From: an uncultured Pirellulaceae bacterium
GTDB lineage: Bacteria > Planctomycetota > Planctomycetia > Pirellulales > Pirellulaceae
DNA: 64,000 nt
NCBI GenBank assembly: GCA_964477385.1
Contig: CAYZHQ010000012.1
Location: forward strand, 21,180 to 85,179
Reading direction: 5' to 3'
Below are positions 26,273-40,056 of this stretch, in pieces. The notes under the pieces were generated by a model. That model did no database searches. It was not told the origin of the DNA and worked only from the letters and a program-made list of their open reading frames with translations. The position numbers and the translations under genes were made by a program. How positions within the stretch are numbered: position 1 is the first letter of the stretch; every line of letters starts with the position of its first letter.

Positions 26273-28999
26273 TTAACGGCTGACGCGAGAGCGTTGTGAG
26301 GAAGAGGTCCGTGATGTGGGCCGTTGATCCGACGAACTTCCTTCGCCTTGCAACAGCTCTTCAAGCACGGCACCGAAGGCGGCGCTGCTGCTTGGAGCGA
26401 CCACGGTAATCGACTGCTCCCCTCTGGCATCGATCGCCAACGCCAATTGCTCCACTTCGGCAAACAATTGCGGTGGAGCGGTGACGATCAACGAATTGCT
26501 TGGCTCGTGGACGGCGACGGTCAACTTGGGTTCGAGGTCCCGGGTTGCAGGGTTCTGCGTCGGCTTGATGCCTTTCTTCTCCTCCGCCCTCTGTCTCGCT
26601 TCGGCTTCGCGTTGAGCTTGCTGAGCGGCCTGTGCGTTTGCGGCGCCTCCCCTGCCCTGTCCGTTTTGATTGTCGGTCAGGATGCGACCGGCAAAAGCTT
26701 CGCGGATCGCTTCGGCGACTTCATCGGCCCGAGTGTAGGTCAGTTCGATCACATGCGGAGTGCCGTAGGTTTCGATCGACGTGATGCTTCGGTCTTTGTC
26801 GATGATTTTTAAGTAGTCTTCGATTAACTCGATGTCCGCCGCGGTGCCTTGAGCAATCAAACGGTTAAGCCGTGAATCGGCAACCACTGTTATCGAGCCA
26901 GCCATCATCGTCGTGGTGCCTTCATCGGAAGTCATCATCGAGCCAAACATCGATGCCCCTTCTGAGCTGGAAGAGACATAGCCTTTGACCAAAGAATTGG
27001 CTTCGCTGCCGCGGGTCATCTCACCGCCATCGATCAGCTCGCGGAGCATTCGCAGCGCGTCGGCCGGCTTGGAGTGTTTCAGGTAAAAAACCACTGGCGG
27101 CAAAGGTTCTGAATCCATCGGTCCCACCAAAGCCCGCAGCTGGGATTCAAACTTGTCGAGTGCCGCGATGTCATCCGATTGCAGCAACAAGCCTCGTGGC
27201 GAGAGCTGACAGCGAATCATGGGGGCCTGACTGTTGCCGGTTGACGAAAGCAACCGTGGGCTAACCGAGGACTCTGCGGATTGGTCGAGCGGCGAGGCAG
27301 GTTCCACGGCGGGATCGTTAGGCACGCGCTCCGAAGATTGATCGGCGGGCGATTTAGCAGTCGGGTAATAAAGGATCGGATTGGGGCCTCGCCAGAACCG
27401 AGCCGCCGTTTCCAATGCTTGCTCGCCCAGTCGACCAGCCAGCGGCACAATACGTAATGCCGGGCCTTCGCTATCTCCGGGAACGTTGCCCGTTTCTAGG
27501 CCGGCCACGATTTTCTTGATCTGGTCGATTTGTTGTTTCTTGCCGCGGACAAACAGCCGCATGTTGCCAGGATCGGCGTCAATTTTCGGAGCTGCTTCGG
27601 CACCTTTGACGGGCTTATCGAGAGGGCCTGGAATATCGAGCATCTCCTCGAGCAGGCTGATGACAAAATAGGGGTCAACCGTTTTCAGTGGAATGACTTC
27701 GAAATCGGCAACATCGGCTTCGAGTTGCGAAACCGTGGCCGCGATTTCTTGATGGACCGATGGCGCGGCAAGCGCAACGATGCTGCCGGCGGTTTCATCC
27801 ATCGAGAGTCGCACCGACTGACGAGCGAGTAACGTTTGCAGAACGTTGTAGATGGTCTCCACGTTGCCGCCTCCCACGACATACGATCGCAACACCATCT
27901 CGCCATTCTGAGTGTTCATCTGTGGCTGCGGCACATCGATCGCTTTAACCAAACCCTCGATCAGCTTGACTTTGTCTTCAACGCCCGTGACAAACAGATT
28001 CTTTCCTTGCAGGTCAGCGGAGAGGCTGATGTCGATGCCGATCATCTCATCCGTTGCCAGACCGAGGTGAGGACGCGCGACGACCAAGACGTCCTCGGCA
28101 CTGACGTGGTCCAAAGCGAAATTTTGGACGACCGTTCCGTTGGACATTTCGGGAGTCTCAAACGCTGCCAAGACCGCGCGAACGCTTTGCAGTTTCGCCA
28201 CCGTATCGGTGATCATCAATTGGTTCGTCTTGGACAGCACCGCTGGCGTCGACATTAAATTCAACGCACTTAGTTCTTGCACTGCGTCTTCGGCCTGGAT
28301 CTGGCCTAGTGGGAAGACGCACTTCACCACGTCGTGGTTGCTCTCTTCGGCAAGTTGATTCACGCTGACCAACCGCGCCAGTACATCCAGCTTTTGCAGC
28401 CCCCGGGGATCTGCCAAGTTGATCACCGACAACAGCTTTCCGCTCCGTACCAGCGTGTAGCCCTCCGAAAGCAGGAACAAGTTGACTCGTTCAATCGCCT
28501 CTTGGGGCGCGAAGGCGTTGGGATCCGAATAGGTAAAGCTGCCCGTGGGGAGTTCACTGAAGTGGAGTGCCAAATCGGCTTCGTCCGCCAACCAAGTGAT
28601 CACGTCACGCCAAGGAACGGCGTTGAAGGAGAACATCAGTTGGTCGTTCTCGGACGTCTGCTCAGTGGTCTCGTCCGAAGGTGGGTCGTTCGAAGGTGGA
28701 TCGTTCGAAGGTGGATCGTTCGAAGGTGGATCGTTCGAAGGTGGATCGTTCGAAGGTGGATCGCCTGTTTCCGTGTTGGAGGCTGCTTCTTGAGGCACCG
28801 CCACCGTTGCGTTGAGTTCGGTCACCTCAGCCGTGGCATCGGGAAGGCTCGGTACGGCGTCGGTCTCCGATGACGCATTCGAATCGGTCGTGACAGTTGG
28901 GGCGGGCACACCCTGGGGGGGTTCTCCGAAGACCAGCGCACACCCCATCAAAAGTGGAGACAGCAAAACAGGAAAACGAGAATGCCGGAGGATTGTCAT
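26273..28999 (-). CDS. Secretin N-terminal domain-containing protein (no C-terminal secretin barrel seen)
   Basis: FSFNAVPW.DV..WLA N0-like start and repeated N-domain motifs (TNQLMITD, ADPGNMRLFVRG, ADSRLNRLIAQG, HEPSNSLIVTAP). Confidence 0.8.
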   Translation of the reverse strand: MTILRHSRFPVLLSPLLMGCALVFGEPPQGVPAPTVTTDSNASSETDAVPSLPDATAEVTELNATVAVPQEAASNTETGDPPSNDPPSNDPPSNDPPSNDPPSNDPPSDETTEQTSENDQLMFSFNAVPWRDVITWLADEADLALHFSELPTGSFTYSDPNAFAPQEAIERVNLFLLSEGYTLVRSGKLLSVINLADPRGLQKLDVLARLVSVNQLAEESNHDVVKCVFPLGQIQAEDAVQELSALNLMSTPAVLSKTNQLMITDTVAKLQSVRAVLAAFETPEMSNGTVVQNFALDHVSAEDVLVVARPHLGLATDEMIGIDISLSADLQGKNLFVTGVEDKVKLIEGLVKAIDVPQPQMNTQNGEMVLRSYVVGGGNVETIYNVLQTLLARQSVRLSMDETAGSIVALAAPSVHQEIAATVSQLEADVADFEVIPLKTVDPYFVISLLEEMLDIPGPLDKPVKGAEAAPKIDADPGNMRLFVRGKKQQIDQIKKIVAGLETGNVPGDSEGPALRIVPLAGRLGEQALETAARFWRGPNPILYYPTAKSPADQSSERVPNDPAVEPASPLDQSAESSVSPRLLSSTGNSQAPMIRCQLSPRGLLLQSDDIAALDKFESQLRALVGPMDSEPLPPVVFYLKHSKPADALRMLRELIDGGEMTRGSEANSLVKGYVSSSSEGASMFGSMMTSDEGTTTMMAGSITVVADSRLNRLIAQGTAADIELIEDYLKIIDKDRSITSIETYGTPHVIELTYTRADEVAEAIREAFAGRILTDNQNGQGRGGAANAQAAQQAQREAEARQRAEEKKGIKPTQNPATRDLEPKLTVAVHEPSNSLIVTAPPQLFAEVEQLALAIDARGEQSITVVAPSSSAAFGAVLEELLQGEGSSSDQRPTSRTSSSQRSRVSR
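28676..28763. repeat. 15-bp tandem repeat (about 6 units) encoding (N)DPPS
   Basis: CGAAGGTGGATCGTT units read directly, with one A>G variant in the first unit. Confidence 0.97.
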
Positions 29000-29388
29000 G
29001 CAGATAGGCACCGTGATCGCGATCGCTGGAGGGAAAACCAGCGATCGGGACGCGAGGTGGGAATGGAAGGCGGGAAGCGAATCGGTGGGAGGGGTTCGCA
29101 AGCGGAGCAGAGCTTGCTCAAAACCCATATTTATCGTAACCAGAAAGCTCCCTCAAAACAATGTTTCGACTGGCTCAGTCACTACGGGGACCTTAAAAGC
29201 AAGGCTAGCCCGACGGCGGCGGGAAAGAATGCAGAGGTTGGTTTTCCCAGGAGAAGCTTGGGCGTCGCCGCGTCAGGTTGCGGCGCCGTTCCTCTACGTT
29301 GCCTGATTTCAAAAGATTTGTCGCTATTTCCGAACCGGTTTGTTTCCGAACCCGTTTGACTGCTCGCTGGAAAATTGCGTTAGCCTCG

Positions 29389-33007: not shown

Positions 33008-36000
33008 TTACCTCGCGACCGCTTCGGACAATCGACGCACGCCAAGTGACTCGGCATGTTTGATCACCGCAGAGGCTGTCTCTCGGATCTGTTGATCGGT
33101 GTGAACGCTGGTGATAAAGAACCGCAGCCTAGCAGCCGACTCTTCGACGGCGGGATACAGAATGGGCTGGACATTGATTCCGTCTAGGTACATGCGTCGT
33201 GACAGACGCAACGCCACCAACGAGTTCCCCGTGATGACGGGAATCACGGCGGTGCCGCCGCTGGGGCCCGTGTCGATGGCGGCTTGCTTGAGGAGTGATA
33301 AGAACAAGGCGCTGTTGTCGCGCAGACGACGTACCCGTTCGGGCTGTTCTTTCAGTAGTTCAATCGAGCGCACCGCGGCGGCGGCATTCGAGGGTGGCAA
33401 GCCGACGCTGAAGACAAAGCCGGGGGCCGTGTACCGCAACAGCTCGATCAGCTCTTTGCATCCGGCGATGTAGCCGCCACACGAGCCAAAGGACTTGCTG
33501 AGCGTTCCCATCCAGATGTCGACGTCGCGCGGGTCGACTCCGAAATGTTCGCTGATGCCGCGACCGGTCGCTCCCATGGTGCCGATACTGTGGGCTTCGT
33601 CCACCATCAGCAGAACTTTGTGGCGTTTGCAGACCTCGATGGCGTGCGGCAAATCACAGAAGTCCCCATCCATGCTGTAGACCCCTTCGACGACCACCAA
33701 TACCCGGCGGTATTGGTGGCGTACTTCGGACAGCAAACGGTCGAGTTCTTCAAATTGATTGTGGGCAAAAGGACGCCGCCGCGCGCCCGACAGGATGGCT
33801 CCCTGGACGATGCTGTTGTGGGATAACGAATCGTGGACGATCAGGTCGCCGGGGCCCACCAGGTTACCGATCGTTGTCTCGTTGGTCGCATGGCCGCCGA
33901 CCATCGTGATCGAATCATCGACGCCGATCCATTTGGCGATCGCTTGTTCCAGTTCCCGGTGGACCGGTTTTTCACCCGACACCAAACGGCTCGCAGAGAC
34001 ACTCGTGCCGTAGCGTTCGATCGCTTCTTCGGCCGCTCGGTTCACTTCGGGGTCACCCGACATGCCCAGATAGTTGTAGCTGGCGAAGCTGATCATTTCC
34101 TGTCCATCGATGAACGTCGTATCACGAACGACCGAATCATGAACCGAGAAATAGGGGTTTGGTACGCCCGTCATCAGCAACTGCGCCATCGTCTGTTTCA
34201 GACGCAGGTACTCGGGAAATTGGTTGAAGCTGTAAGAGTCTTCGGCGACTTCGATGGTCTTGGGAGCCGAACCGTTGCCGTTGACGACTTGCAGGCGTGC
34301 AAGATCGGTGACCGTCGAGCCCATATGTTGCTCGATCGCCAGAGCGACCTCTCCGATGGTCTCGATGTCCTGCAGCACCTCTTCGGGAAAGCGTCCGCCG
34401 AAGGCCTGTTCCAATGAGTGCGCGATCTGCAGACGCTCGAGCGAGTCGAGCCCCAGGTCGAGCACGATATTGGTGTTGGCATCCATGTGGCCGGCGCGTT
34501 CTTGTGCAATGGACCGCACGTGTTGGAGGACTGCGGACAGGATGTCGGGATTTAGCTTGCGGCCTTCGATCGGGTGATTCGAACCGGTGGCAAACAAATC
34601 GCGATCATCATCGCTAACGCTGGCGGCCTGCATGGCAGGCGCGGCATTCCGCCCACCGCTTTGAGCTTCTTCCCAGCGGACCCACTTGGCGACCACTTTC
34701 AGCGTGTTATCGCGGACTGCGTCGACGCAGGCATGCCGCTGGATTTTGCCGCTGCTGGTTTTCGGGACTGAGCTGTTGCGAACCAAATAGACTGCCTCGG
34801 GCGGCAGCTCGTGCTCGGCGGTCACAGCCCGCCGGATGGCTTGAAGATGCGCGTCCCGATCGATGTCTCGAGCTCGCACGGTTTCGGCGACGATGACCAG
34901 TTGTTCGCGACCATCATGTTCCATTGAAAATGCGGCAACAGCCCCAGCTTGAACCGCATCACTGGCTTGCTCGACCGTTTGCTCGATGTCTTGCGGATAC
35001 CGATTAACGCCCCGAATGATGATCATGTCCTTCAAGCGACCGCTGACAAACAGTTGGCCTTCGTTCAGAAAGCCTAGGTCTCCGGTGCGTAGGAAGGGAC
35101 CTTGCCCATCGTTCGACATGGCTCCAAAAGTTTCCTCCGTGGCACGTTCGGCCTGCCAATAGCCCTTGCCGACGCAGGGGCCTTGAATCCAGATTTCGCC
35201 GATTTTGCCGGCCGGTAATATCGCGTGCGAATCAGGATCCACAATCTCGAGCCGTTCCCCTGGGATGATCGCTCCGCAGCCGATCAGTTCTCGCGCTGCG
35301 GGCGAGTCTTGATCGACGGGCACCACCAATTGTGCATCGAGTTGGTGACGGTCAAAGGTTCGATGAACGGGTCGCGTTTCTCGCGGGCCACCGGTCACAA
35401 TCAGCGTCGTTTCGGCCATTCCGTAACATGGCAAGAAAGCATCATGGCGAAAGCCAACCGAAGCAAATTTTTCCGAGAACGCCTTCAGCGTCGCCGCTCG
35501 AATCGGCTCGGCACCATTGAAAGCGATCCGCCATGTCGACAGATCCAAGCCGACCATTTCCTCGGGTTCGACTTTATCGACGCACAACTGGTAAGCAAAG
35601 TTCGGCCCACCGCTGATGTTGGCCTGATAGCGAGTGATCGCTCGCAGCCACTTCACCGGATGCTGCAGAAACGTCATGGGGCTCATCAAGGTGTTGGCCT
35701 TCCCGAAGAAGACCGGTTGCAGCACGCCACCGACCAACCCCATGTCGTGGTACGTCGGTAACCAAGTGACGCCGCTGCGAGTGCCTTGCGGCTGAAACGC
35801 ATAGGTGATCTGTTCGCAATTGACGACTAAGTTCTGGTGGGTCAGCATGACCCCTTTCGGAGAACCGGTCGATCCCGAAGTGTATTGTAGGACGGCGATG
35901 TCGTCCGCCTTCAAATCGGGGCGTTGCCACTTTGCCAAATCGCGCTTGTCGGTCGCGTCGGTACCGAGGATACAAATGTTCTCGAGGTCGGGATGCCGGT

Positions 36001-36412
36001 TCTCGCCACTTAATTGATCGGCAACGGTCGTCGTCGAGAGGGCAAATCGTGTCTGAGCATCCTGCGCAATGGAGCGAATTCGGCCTGCTTTGCGATTCTT
36101 TCGGGGTGGGTAGGCGGGAACGGCAATCGCACCCGCGGCATGGCAGGCAAAGAAGCCGACCACGAAATCGAGGCCTGGTGGATAGAGCAGCAAAACCCGC
36201 TCATTGCGCTCGATGCCTTGCGACTGGAAGTAGCCCGCCAGCCCCCGGATCTCCGTCCAGAGTTCGCGATACGTCAGCGAAGCTTCTTGTGCGTCGCCGT
36301 CGGTAAAGTAAAACGCAGGCTGTTCACCCTGCCGCTGGCACCAATATTCCAAGATATCGAGGAAGTTGGTCCGTGGAGGATCGCCGTTGTCGAAGTAACG
36401 CTGCAAATTCAC
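33008..36412 (-). CDS. Fatty acyl-AMP ligase - ACP - alpha-oxoamine synthase fusion
   Basis: LQYTSGSTGSPKG, WLPTYHDMGL, CYGMAE plus FAAL-type insertion, PKTSSGKIQR; ACP LGLDSL; AOS SYNYLG, EGVYSMDG, DEAHS, GTLSKS. Confidence 0.93.
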   Translation of the reverse strand: MNLQRYFDNGDPPRTNFLDILEYWCQRQGEQPAFYFTDGDAQEASLTYRELWTEIRGLAGYFQSQGIERNERVLLLYPPGLDFVVGFFACHAAGAIAVPAYPPRKNRKAGRIRSIAQDAQTRFALSTTTVADQLSGENRHPDLENICILGTDATDKRDLAKWQRPDLKADDIAVLQYTSGSTGSPKGVMLTHQNLVVNCEQITYAFQPQGTRSGVTWLPTYHDMGLVGGVLQPVFFGKANTLMSPMTFLQHPVKWLRAITRYQANISGGPNFAYQLCVDKVEPEEMVGLDLSTWRIAFNGAEPIRAATLKAFSEKFASVGFRHDAFLPCYGMAETTLIVTGGPRETRPVHRTFDRHQLDAQLVVPVDQDSPAARELIGCGAIIPGERLEIVDPDSHAILPAGKIGEIWIQGPCVGKGYWQAERATEETFGAMSNDGQGPFLRTGDLGFLNEGQLFVSGRLKDMIIIRGVNRYPQDIEQTVEQASDAVQAGAVAAFSMEHDGREQLVIVAETVRARDIDRDAHLQAIRRAVTAEHELPPEAVYLVRNSSVPKTSSGKIQRHACVDAVRDNTLKVVAKWVRWEEAQSGGRNAAPAMQAASVSDDDRDLFATGSNHPIEGRKLNPDILSAVLQHVRSIAQERAGHMDANTNIVLDLGLDSLERLQIAHSLEQAFGGRFPEEVLQDIETIGEVALAIEQHMGSTVTDLARLQVVNGNGSAPKTIEVAEDSYSFNQFPEYLRLKQTMAQLLMTGVPNPYFSVHDSVVRDTTFIDGQEMISFASYNYLGMSGDPEVNRAAEEAIERYGTSVSASRLVSGEKPVHRELEQAIAKWIGVDDSITMVGGHATNETTIGNLVGPGDLIVHDSLSHNSIVQGAILSGARRRPFAHNQFEELDRLLSEVRHQYRRVLVVVEGVYSMDGDFCDLPHAIEVCKRHKVLLMVDEAHSIGTMGATGRGISEHFGVDPRDVDIWMGTLSKSFGSCGGYIAGCKELIELLRYTAPGFVFSVGLPPSNAAAAVRSIELLKEQPERVRRLRDNSALFLSLLKQAAIDTGPSGGTAVIPVITGNSLVALRLSRRMYLDGINVQPILYPAVEESAARLRFFITSVHTDQQIRETASAVIKHAESLGVRRLSEAVAR

Positions 36413-36726
36413 TAGTGATCAAATCCCAATAGCGAGGGTGGTCCCAGAAGCGAGCGTGGTTCCAGTGTTGATGGTGTTTCCCCTTTCAGGCAGACTGTCG
36501 ATGCCGGGCCGCCGGATTCGCCCGCCAAGCCAGCCGTCTCTCGGAAACACATCAACTCAAGCTGACAGAAACCAGAGTAGTTCCCCGTAAGCCTCTGCTC
36601 CATCGTTATCGGCGCGATGCTCAGGCTTTCCTAAGCTAGCTCTGATAAGCTAGTTTAACCGCATAACCGGCACAGGAATAACCTCAACCGCTTGAATCAG
36701 TGGCCTCGATGCGCCAAGGAACCGTC

Positions 36727-38091
36727 ATGCAGCCCCCTTTGAAGCTGGTCGAACGCGTCGTCAACTTATTAGATCCGGACGGTAACGTACTGCTCAATCG
36801 GACACCTGAGCAAGCCGCCGAAGCGGTCCGGAGTGGGCAAATGGACCGAGTCCGCGAGATTCAGGGCCAGTTTGCGATCTGCCAGCAGGTTGGCAAGACC
36901 ATTCGGATGGCGCGGTCGATCGGGCGGCCAATGCGGTATTTCCTGGCAAAGCGGGCGGCCGGCCCCTGTTTAATCATTGCCGAGCGGATCGATGAGATCT
37001 ACCAGCAGTTGGCCATCGAAGGGCTGCAGGATCAATTTCATCCCTCTTACACTCGGATGGTGCCGGCACACCATCTGATGGAACTGCAGCTAGTGGGATG
37101 TCCCGATCCTAACCCCCAGCTCAGCCGTTTCTTTACCCCTGCAAGAAATCGCCTGCCAGCCGACATCGAAGCCATTGGTCGGCAATATATTGGACAGTTG
37201 GCGAGCGTTTGTGACGCTTGGTTGGATCGCATCGACCAACGTGAGCCGATCGGGGTGTTGTTCAGCGGCGGTGTCGACAGCGGAGCGGTGCTGATGGTGC
37301 TGAATTATCTGTTGCTGCGACGCGGAGAGGCACCTCAGCGGCTGAAGGCGTTTACGTTGGGCGTTGATGACGATGCAAAAGATGCCCCGCAGGCGATCGA
37401 GTTCCTCCGCGCGATCCACATGGAAATGTTACTGGAGCGGGTCGAAGTCCCACGCAGCGCGCTCGATTACCGTCAAGCGATTCGGGTGATCGAGGACTAC
37501 AAACCACTCGATGTTCAGGCGGCAACGATGGGCTTGGCCCTGTGTCGCGAGATCCGGAAGCGGTATCCCGATTGGCGTTACCTGGTTGACGGCGATGGCG
37601 GTGACGAGAATCTGAAGGATTACCCGATTGAGGAAAATCCCGAACTGACGATCCGCAGCGTGTTGGGGAATCGCATGCTGTATCAAGAAGGTTGGGGCGT
37701 CGACGCGGTCAAGCATTCGCTGGTCTATAGCGGGGGGCAGAGTCGCGGTCATGTGCGAACTTCCGCTCCAGCACGCGTGTTGGGGTTCCAGGGGTTCAGC
37801 CCTTTCGCATTGCCCGATGTGATCGAAGTTGCCGAAGCGATCCCGTTTGTGTCGTTGACCGATTGGGACCACGAACGACTGTATCAACTGAAAGGCCAGA
37901 TCGTGGCTGCGGGCATCTTCGCTGTCACGGGCCTGAAGATGCCGCTGTTTGAAAAGCGACGCTTCCAACGCGGGGCGGTCGACGATGCTACTTTCGAACA
38001 GTTGTTTCCCGCCGATCCGCAAGCCTACCGCGATGCCTTCGCGGAACAGTTCAACGGTTCGGCAGCGGCGCAATTACTCGAGACGCCCTGA
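36727..38091 (+). CDS. Asparagine synthetase-related ATP pyrophosphatase
   Basis: PP-loop LFSGGVDS, DGDGGDE, degenerate Ntn-like N-terminus (GQFAI, ARSIGRPMRY) with no N-terminal Cys. Confidence 0.88.
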   Translation: MQPPLKLVERVVNLLDPDGNVLLNRTPEQAAEAVRSGQMDRVREIQGQFAICQQVGKTIRMARSIGRPMRYFLAKRAAGPCLIIAERIDEIYQQLAIEGLQDQFHPSYTRMVPAHHLMELQLVGCPDPNPQLSRFFTPARNRLPADIEAIGRQYIGQLASVCDAWLDRIDQREPIGVLFSGGVDSGAVLMVLNYLLLRRGEAPQRLKAFTLGVDDDAKDAPQAIEFLRAIHMEMLLERVEVPRSALDYRQAIRVIEDYKPLDVQAATMGLALCREIRKRYPDWRYLVDGDGGDENLKDYPIEENPELTIRSVLGNRMLYQEGWGVDAVKHSLVYSGGQSRGHVRTSAPARVLGFQGFSPFALPDVIEVAEAIPFVSLTDWDHERLYQLKGQIVAAGIFAVTGLKMPLFEKRRFQRGAVDDATFEQLFPADPQAYRDAFAEQFNGSAAAQLLETP

Positions 38092-38987
38092 TGCCCTCGG
38101 AGTTGACTCGCGAGGTGCTGGCGCTCCGCGGTCGTCGCGCGCAGGTGCATCCCGCGCGTGCTAACGCGGTCATCCGCGAGGAAGAACCGACTGCCGAAGG
38201 TGTTACGGTTCCCACCACGACTCTGCTGCTCGCCGCCGCGGAATGCCCCCTACGCTGTGCAATGTGCGACTTGTGGCAACACACCTTGACCACTCCCACG
38301 CCGCCGGGGGCGACGGTCGAACAAATCGAAACCGCGCTCGCGGGCCAACCGCGACAGGGGACCATCAAGCTGTACAACAGCGGCAGTTTTTTCGATCCGC
38401 GTAGCGTTCCTGTACAAGACTATCGCGCGATCGCCGAAGCGGTCCAGGGATTTGATCGTGTGGTGGTGGAGAACCATCCTCGCTTTGGTCGCCGTCGCAT
38501 GGCTGCCTTCGCGAACTTGCTGGCGGCACGTTTGGAAATCGCCGTCGGTTTGGAAACGGTTCAAACCAGTATGCTGCGGCGGTTGAATAAACAGATGACG
38601 CGCGATGACTTTGATCGCTTCGCTGCCGCCCTCCAGTCGCAGTCGATTGACTTGCGAGTCTTTCTGATGCTCAAGCCACCCTGGACGGGTGAAGCCGAAG
38701 CGGTGGCGTGGACGCTGCTGTCGGTACGACACGCGGTCGCTTGTGGCGCACGGCATATCACCATCATCCCGGCGCGCAGTGGCAACGGCTGGATGGAGCA
38801 GCGAGCGCGCGCTGGTGAGTTTGCGCCGCCAAGCCTGCGGACGCTTGCCGAGGCGGTGAAGCGATCCCAGCACGCGGTCCGGCAAATCGGCGCCCGTTGT
38901 GCGGTCACCGCCGATTTATGGGATGTCGATGCTGCTGCCGATCCAGAGGCGTATCGGCAACTGTGCGAGGCCAATCGCTTGGGCTGA
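38091..38987 (+). CDS. Radical SAM enzyme, RaSEA (archaeosine synthesis)-like
   Basis: CPLRCAMC, IKLYNSGSFFDP, ENHP, EIAVGLET, LNK, FLMLKPP, PPSL. TGATG overlap with the upstream gene. Confidence 0.88.
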   Translation: MPSELTREVLALRGRRAQVHPARANAVIREEEPTAEGVTVPTTTLLLAAAECPLRCAMCDLWQHTLTTPTPPGATVEQIETALAGQPRQGTIKLYNSGSFFDPRSVPVQDYRAIAEAVQGFDRVVVENHPRFGRRRMAAFANLLAARLEIAVGLETVQTSMLRRLNKQMTRDDFDRFAAALQSQSIDLRVFLMLKPPWTGEAEAVAWTLLSVRHAVACGARHITIIPARSGNGWMEQRARAGEFAPPSLRTLAEAVKRSQHAVRQIGARCAVTADLWDVDAAADPEAYRQLCEANRLG

Positions 38988-39141
38988 GGCAACCGCAGGA
39001 CCGTCGAAGACTCCCGGCACGGCATTGCGACAGGTGGCTCCGTTCGCACCCCAGCTTTCCTCCGGCGCAGTGATAGTTATAGTCATCTCTCTTCGCCTGC
39101 TTCCCGATATCGTCGTCTCCTGTTAGAAGGATCCCACCGTC

Positions 39142-40056
39142 ATGGATACACGCCCACAGACCCCGCAACGGCTGGCGGAAAGTGTGTTTGCCGTCCCGCC
39201 GATGGCGCGGAATCAGGCCCTGCAAGTCTGCCCCGAGCAGAACCTACGGCTGATCCAGCACTTGGAGTCGGGCGGGGTGAATCTGTTGCTGTACGGTGGC
39301 AACGCGGTTTTCTATCACATTCGGATGGCGGAATACGCGGCGACCCTGCAGATGCTGGCCGAATCGGTCCAGCCGACCACCGGCGTCGTGCCTTCGATCG
39401 GCCCGGCGTTTGGCACGATGATGGATCAAATCGAAGTGCTGCGGGACTTTGATTTTCCGACCGTCATGGTGTTGCCCGCTCGTGACATTGCCGATGCCGA
39501 GGGAATCGCCCGCGGGATTCGACTGGCTGCCGAAGCGCTGCAGAAACCGCTGGTGGTGTACCTCAAATTCGACCGTTGGCTGCCGACACGGTTGGTCCGT
39601 TCGCTGTTCGATGATGGAGTTATCTCGTGGATCAAGTACGCGGTCGTGCGAGACGATCCGGCCGAGGATGACTACCTGCGTGAATTGCTGGGTGAGGTTC
39701 CCGGCGAACGGATCGTCAGTGGCATCGGCGAACAACCGGCGATCGTCCACATGCGTGACTTCGGTGTGGTCGGTTTCACCAGCGGTTGCGTCTGCGTGGC
39801 CCCCCGGCGCAGCATGCGGATGCTGAAAGCAATCCAAGCGGGCGACTACGAGACGGCTGAGGCGATCCGCCAGAGCTTTGAGCCGCTCGAAGACCAACGC
39901 AATGCGATTAATCCGATTCGCGTCTTGCATCGAGCGGTCGACCTAGCGGGCATTTCGCAAACCGGTCCTATGTTGCCTCTGCTGGGAGAGTTGACCAGTG
40001 AGCAAGAGGCGGTTTTGGGCCCGATCGCCAAGGACTTGTTGGCGATCAATCAGTAG
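39142..40056 (+). CDS. Dihydrodipicolinate synthase-family aldolase/dehydratase
   Basis: Class I aldolase layout, VVYLK, WIKYA candidate Schiff-base Lys, GFTSG. YGGNA replaces GTTGE. Confidence 0.8.
   Translation: MDTRPQTPQRLAESVFAVPPMARNQALQVCPEQNLRLIQHLESGGVNLLLYGGNAVFYHIRMAEYAATLQMLAESVQPTTGVVPSIGPAFGTMMDQIEVLRDFDFPTVMVLPARDIADAEGIARGIRLAAEALQKPLVVYLKFDRWLPTRLVRSLFDDGVISWIKYAVVRDDPAEDDYLRELLGEVPGERIVSGIGEQPAIVHMRDFGVVGFTSGCVCVAPRRSMRMLKAIQAGDYETAEAIRQSFEPLEDQRNAINPIRVLHRAVDLAGISQTGPMLPLLGELTSEQEAVLGPIAKDLLAINQ

Follow-up and report, generated by a model that had tools for sequence, protein, structure and literature searches.

What is made by two genes that overlap by a single base, one for a predicted amide ligase and the other for a radical SAM protein? 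The pair lies in a 64,000-nucleotide stretch of DNA from an uncultured Pirellulaceae bacterium (hereafter the window). The upstream gene, A (36727..38091, + strand, 454 amino acids from an ATG at 36727, with an in-frame GTG at 36700 as alternative start), is predicted to encode an ATP-dependent amide ligase of the AsnB/beta-lactam-synthetase fold. The downstream gene, R (38091..38987, + strand, 298 amino acids from an ATG at 38091), encodes a radical SAM protein in the neighbourhood of RaSEA and QueL. The TGA stop codon of A (38089-38091) and the ATG of R share one base within the sequence TGATG (38089..38093, + strand), suggesting that translation of the two genes is coupled. A first-pass annotation, made from the letters alone, had described both reading frames, their overlap and a set of protein motifs, and each was present in the sequence. 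A sigma-70 promoter scan of positions 36300-39300 returned no candidate, and no riboswitch was detected upstream of the module in 20 loci scanned, where the sole RNA found was one tRNA.

The family assignment of A was confirmed by a match to PF00733 (Asn_synthase) at 55 bits, against a cut-off of 21. The motif SGGVDS occupies residues 180-185 and GDGGDE residues 289-294. The predicted model of A (pLDDT 85.5) matched 12 entries of the AsnB superfamily with Z scores of 20-25, the next row falling to Z 10.5. Superposition on beta-lactam synthetase (1mc1) gave Z 24.9 and an rmsd of 3.8 over 381 aligned residues, a match with which human ASNS ties. The two-domain fold, extending across ~380 residues, is thus common to A, beta-lactam synthetase, CarA, AsnB and TsnB9, and the PP-loop, GDGGDE and the catalytic-lysine region are kept, whereas identity to these proteins is 10-17% and the first ~39 residues, including the glutaminase cysteine, are gone. 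In the structure comparison A aligned with AsnB and beta-lactam synthetase chains only from their residues ~30-40 onwards, indicating that the region of the glutaminase nucleophile is absent. The Ntn domain of A is truncated and Cys-less, in agreement with the earlier observation that no N-terminal nucleophile cysteine is encoded. Beta-lactam synthetase is itself a Cys-less paralogue of AsnB and couples an organic amine.

Among 127 orthologues of A, the PP-loop, GDGGDENLK.Y and K410RRFQ were at least 97% conserved. Two further motifs, HPSYTRMVPAH and GCPDP, were invariant (127/127) and are A's own, setting it apart from beta-lactam synthetase, CarA, AsnB and TsnB9; the invariant internal cysteine of GCPDP could form a second catalytic site. 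The full-length divergent relatives of A, with 31-39% identity (P0249, P0305, P0296, P0304, P0339, P0349, P0382 and P0260), lack the GCPDP motif; two of them carry the source labels Ca. Berkelbacteria and Nanoarchaeota. A metagenome scan aimed at this divergent group gave loci of the main A family.

R contains the cysteine motif C52-x3-C56-x2-C59 together with KLYNSGSFFDP (residues 93-103), GLET (153-156) and LKPP. Across 144 sequences the three cysteines, K93-D102, E127/H129 and G153-T156 were at least 97% conserved, giving R and its orthologues a RaSEA-like core. The top NCBIfam match of R was TIGR01210 (RaSEA; E 4e-26), which also matched 22 of 22 orthologues tested; two orthologues scored 91 and 102 bits. 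The proposed likeness to RaSEA therefore holds for the motifs and the family match, but the score of R, 92 bits, lies below the curated cut-off of 212. At least four tail cysteines were found in 110 of 140 R orthologues, and the R protein of the window is without this four-Cys C-terminal tail.

The best PDB sequence match of R was QueL (6p78, E 0.022), with which it has the motifs NSGSFF, E.H and G.ET in common. The two proteins differ in that their structural identity is ~16-18% and R is without Q-salvage neighbours. QueL also headed the structural comparison of the R model (pLDDT 94.8) with Z 17.4 and an rmsd of 3.5 over 220 aligned residues. As HydE (16.9) and BioB tied with QueL within 1 Z, and QueL ranked ninth in a Foldseek search, C-N lyase chemistry is taken as a lead for R. 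Domain searches detected neither a SPASM or other peptide-recognition domain nor an RNA-binding domain in A or R. One weak match (L008) was rejected as an R homolog, being a different radical SAM protein.

Scanning GTDB with an R alignment yielded at least 571 confirmed stretches. Among the best 80 of these, A was immediately upstream of R in 57, and the loci spanned Planctomycetota, Acidobacteriota, Armatimonadota, Verrucomicrobiota, Bacteroidota/Balneolaceae and Methylomirabilota. Within Planctomycetia A and R marked an identical set of genomes (47/151), in 40 of which the genes are adjacent. With adjacency in 57/80 loci and 40/47 genomes, the pairing is not due to chance, and the expectation that the two genes are conserved together was borne out. 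Metagenome loci centred on A contained R in 58/80 cases, or 55/69 where at least 700 bp followed A; one of the 80 was nearly identical to the window. In Acidobacteriota R occurred in the same locus as A in all 11 examined, a twelfth having been left out, with a gap of ~1.1 kb in one (L204), and in the class of a Balneolaceae genome this held for 16 of the best 20 A loci.

The distribution of the pair is patchy within genera. In a FastTree phylogeny of 62 A proteins, copies from one Planctomycetia family (f96) grouped with those of Armatimonadota (SH 100) and not with other Planctomycetota, which suggests transfer of the cassette between lineages. Carriage by viruses or plasmids was considered and rejected, since searches of IMG/VR (no relatives of A or R), GenBank phages (no R and no divergent A relative P0260) and plasmids (no A, and two distant R-like proteins, both on Streptomyces plasmids) returned no close relatives. 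The nearest named relatives of A and R are from Pirellulaceae such as Roseimaritima. Judged by database names, cultured carriers include Roseimaritima, Stieleria, Rubripirellula and Rhodopirellula baltica, making comparative metabolomics feasible.

A third gene, H, surfaced when the neighbours of R-centred loci were clustered. It encodes a flavoprotein of ~520 amino acids whose matches include PF04820 (43 bits, cut-off 21) and two halogenases, CtcP and PltM (E ~1e-45). H shares GxGxxG, the catalytic lysine motif and WxWxL with these free-substrate flavin halogenases, the lysine of CG.KRGF being kept in 89/89 H sequences and WxWx[LIVFM] in 78/89, whereas the similarity is limited to the first ~390 residues. 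In the PltM work, Lys87 is given as catalytic, and a mutagenesis primer listed there encodes the same motif as H (PMC6424973). H is therefore predicted to be a PltM/CtcP-type flavin halogenase, although it may instead act as a hydroxylase. A planctomycete brominase, BaaB, was rejected as a member of the same system; it occupies a separate locus beside a chorismate lyase gene.

Gene orders among the best 80 of the at least 571 GTDB loci were A-R-H (55), R-H (19), A-R (2) and R alone (4), such that H follows R in 74/80. No flavin reductase recurred among the neighbours in this set. H was present in 32 of the 80 A-centred metagenome loci. In the genome studied here it sits on another contig, outside the window (G000:C29:42471-43967). 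H was found in 41 of the 47 Planctomycetia genomes with A and R, and the six without it all belong to family f96, indicating that the halogenation step is optional and not obligatory; a weaker H match occurred in one A-negative Planctomycetia genome.

The remaining partner is a TPR/FG-GAP propeller protein of ~1,200 residues that is probably exported and ends in an unnamed C-terminal domain. This genome encodes a single copy, outside the window (G000:C103:6232-10059, 1,275 amino acids, with an N-terminal hydrophobic segment), whose C-terminal domain was used as the query in a co-occurrence search. Over three lineages the domain was detected in 87/88 A-positive versus 128/365 A-negative genomes, counts that overstate independence because the genomes are kin, and Fisher tests on such data, which share this bias, are given no weight. 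The corresponding figures were 47/47 versus 48/104 for Planctomycetia, 11/12 (10/11 without the unpublished genome G370) versus 48/139 for Acidobacteriota, and 29/29 versus 32/122 for the third class. A is thus near-strictly dependent on the propeller protein, in one direction only. The exception, G454, contains A-R-H and gave no match to the domain with two queries; its assembly is fragmented.

A score gap was visible in Planctomycetia, where 51 genomes, including all 47 that are A-positive, matched at E ≤6e-76 and 44 had weaker paralogues alone; the split at 1e-75 was set post hoc, after the gap could be seen, and is biased to the query from this genome. Some paralogue was present in 34/35 genomes of family f96, the high-scoring form being confined to the six with A and R. 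In one genus (g210) A-R and the strong form occur together in four genomes, and three others have neither. No R remnants were detected in the four Planctomycetia genomes that have a high-scoring propeller protein without A.

The C-terminal domain begins with an invariant Ser-Cys-Pro. It had no match in Pfam or the PDB and fell into unnamed Atlas clusters only. A single A-R-specific clade of propeller proteins was not supported by a FastTree phylogeny, in which the A-R-adjacent copies were polyphyletic. Beside the propeller protein in A-negative Acidobacteriota, no other enzyme set was common (nitrilase 3/20, ketosynthase cluster 3/20). Weaker-scoring propeller paralogues are followed by a nitrilase-family (formamidase-like) gene at L183:6287-7219 and in 11 other loci of the series L173-L192, as well as in L211, L215 and L220. 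In L209, L212 and L219, propeller proteins of a distinct clade are encoded beside three propeller genes and the gene of a FabF-like ketosynthase. In this genome, a 745-amino-acid glycoside-hydrolase-65-like gene directly follows the propeller protein (L130:3983-6220, on contig C103).

Physical linkage joins the propeller protein to the module in several gene orders. Five f96 genomes have the co-directional order giant-V-U-A-R, where the giant is the propeller protein and V and U are of the UnbV and UnbU types; the orders A-R-H-giant-V-U and giant-V-U-A-R-H occur in G261 and L038, respectively. Among R-centred loci (best 80 of at least 571) FG-GAP/ASPIC genes were present in 36 and RnfD-like (UnbU-type) genes in 23, mostly from related Acidobacteriaceae. 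These flanking proteins, which we take to be those named E4/UnbV and E5/UnbU, recall the enediyne cassette, in that many loci are flanked by FG-GAP and ASPIC/UnbV propellers and by a membrane protein resembling RnfD. Unlike that cassette, no polyketide synthase recurs among the neighbours, and this genome has no UnbU-like match. In a study of a diiodotetrayne, E4/UnbV and E5/UnbU reportedly take part in forming the product.

The observations comprise the gene identities and folds, the conserved catalytic motifs, the joint inheritance of A and R, the frequent operon linkage to H and the almost strict dependence of A upon the propeller protein. From these we infer, with a probability of roughly 0.45, that A, R and, where present, H form a cytoplasmic module that ligates, radically cleaves and optionally halogenates, and that the small amide or amine it makes would serve the exported protein. 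The same inference covers each reaction, the sequence in which they occur, the substrate and which way the link to the exported protein runs. A would adenylate a carboxylate with ATP and then couple an organic amine, following the chemistry of beta-lactam synthetase. Like RaSEA and QueL, R would remove a hydrogen from the donor and cleave its C-N bond, and H could halogenate an electron-rich activated ring. The product would then be handed to the exported protein or, alternatively, a precursor would be received from it. Ligation followed by cleavage would be the most economical chemistry for this set of enzymes, and the presence of halogenase and exported-protein partners makes a small molecule likely and points away from tRNA chemistry. 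The module is conserved, built from known enzyme families and apparently undescribed; in line with the first-pass claim of novelty, no description of A-R-H was found in the literature searched, a coverage that mostly leaves out subscription journals.

A bolder form of this reading is doubtful, if not far-fetched: A, R and H would make an unrecognised cofactor or signal that is halogenated, through a novel combination of amide ligation and radical C-N cleavage, and the widespread TPR/propeller/SCP protein with UnbV/UnbU would constitute an undescribed extracytoplasmic enzyme class that uses it. If true, this would for the first time assign a function to relatives of the enediyne cassette proteins, which are themselves unexplained, and would uncover a hidden pathway in phyla that abound in soil and sea. 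More generally, the module is widespread (at least 571 GTDB stretches) in abundant, little-studied phyla and joins three enzyme classes with unusual chemistry. It would extend RaSEA/QueL radical enzymes past queuosine and archaeosine metabolism, and it offers a genetic handle on uncharacterised FG-GAP/ASPIC proteins, which are multi-copy in Planctomycetota and Acidobacteriota.

The module might instead act in salvage or catabolism. In this case an ABC importer of the NitT/TauT type, together with the exported protein, would take up an environmental amine or heterocycle that R would trim and that A and H would rebuild into a cofactor or metabolite. Consistent with this, QueL is a salvage enzyme, an SsuA/NitT-like ABC transporter adjoins the module in seven Planctomycetia and 3-4 metagenome loci, and a paralogous exported protein lies next to a nitrilase-family amidase in 12 loci. 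However, halogenation and ligation at the expense of ATP usually belong to biosynthesis, and no transporter family recurred among the best 80 of the at least 571 R-centred loci. A role in salvage or catabolism is unlikely overall. Transporter genes of the SsuA/NitT type beside the module were recorded at L191:13559-16643, in L131-L133 and L135-L137, and in L249, L257 and L291.

That A depends almost strictly on the exported protein (87/88) would also be expected if that protein were itself the substrate, with A, R and H modifying it, for example at Ser-Cys-Pro, to give a protein-derived cofactor before export, as with QhpD/QhpG and LodB. QhpG is indeed the top NCBIfam match of H, at 83 bits, under its cut-off of 240, but H is much nearer to the free-substrate halogenases. 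Moreover, Ser-Cys-Pro is equally conserved in propeller proteins from genomes without A-R, the A-R-adjacent copies do not form one clade, and A and R were without a detected SPASM or peptide-recognition domain. Taken together, these observations make maturation of the exported protein quite improbable.

The kinship of R raises another alternative, in which A would replace ArcS in bacteria, and tRNA or DNA would carry an archaeosine-like or other 7-deazaguanine modification. The two nearest characterised relatives of R both act on 7-deazaguanine derivatives: RaSEA is described as converting preQ0-Lys to archaeosine (PMC11298593), and QueL as a queuine lyase that functions in salvage (PMC11130926). 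The uniform TIGR01210 matches of R orthologues fit this alternative, and the genome contains queC, queF, queG and tgt. In the account of the euryarchaeal system, ArcS is a TGT homologue that acts on preQ0-tRNA and needs RaSEA in a complex (PMC11298593). The A-R pair resembles ArcS-RaSEA in that a predicted amine-transferring enzyme is matched with a RaSEA-related radical SAM protein. It differs in that A is an AsnB-fold PP-loop enzyme unrelated to the TGT paralogue ArcS, R scores far under the RaSEA cut-off, an ArcS-like gene and linkage to tgt are lacking, and the partners are a halogenase and an exported protein.

Further observations argue against such a modification. The genome encodes a single tgt, with no second (ArcS-like) PF01702 match. 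The gene queG, previously suggested as a guide to the substrate, was near the pair in 1/93 related loci in the neighbourhood count, tgt was near it in 0/93, and neither occurred in 80 metagenome loci. No RNA-binding domain was detected, and the occurrence of the pair is patchy within genera and follows that of the exported protein. In addition, a RaSEA-like protein scoring higher than R (173 bits) is encoded on a Streptomyces plasmid, clustered with genes for a P450, a glycosyltransferase and a carbamoyltransferase, indicating that kinship with RaSEA need not mean tRNA chemistry. A role in 7-deazaguanine modification thus appears decidedly improbable. The plasmid cluster itself (Streptomyces sp. 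FR1 plasmid pFRL3, L098:11791-22937) is headed by the RaSEA-like radical SAM gene matching TIGR01210 and includes P450, SHMT-like, GT9, carbamoyltransferase, GDSL and heptose adenylyltransferase genes; its RaSEA-like protein belongs to a sizeable, mostly actinobacterial family.

Finally, that A is an ammonia-dependent asparagine synthetase with incidental neighbours is highly implausible, despite the above-cut-off PF00733 match and the tie between the ASNS and beta-lactam synthetase folds, because the genome carries three full-length AsnB genes elsewhere, the AsnB equivalog TIGR01536 was not reached (42 bits versus a cut-off of 267), and A and R co-occur exactly; the initial view that A is no plain asparagine synthetase was therefore upheld.

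Other genes of the window were compared with the same related loci. The FAAL-AOS fusion, the second lead offered by the first-pass annotation, recurred in 2/93 loci, both from close Pirellulaceae relatives; like that of queG, the link of this FAAL-aminoketone gene to the pair is local only. The DHDPS-like gene downstream was rejected as a partner (0/93 loci). The fusion, FAAL-ACP-AOS (BioF/SPT-like; 33008-36412, - strand, 1,134 amino acids), is a candidate synthase of aminoketones or sphingoid lipids. The DHDPS/KDG-dehydratase-like gene (39142-40056, + strand) comes right after R and is not conserved beside the A-R pair. Farther along the - strand, at 26273-29128, a protein of 951 amino acids that appears secretin-like by inspection has PPSND repeated in tandem close to its N-terminus.
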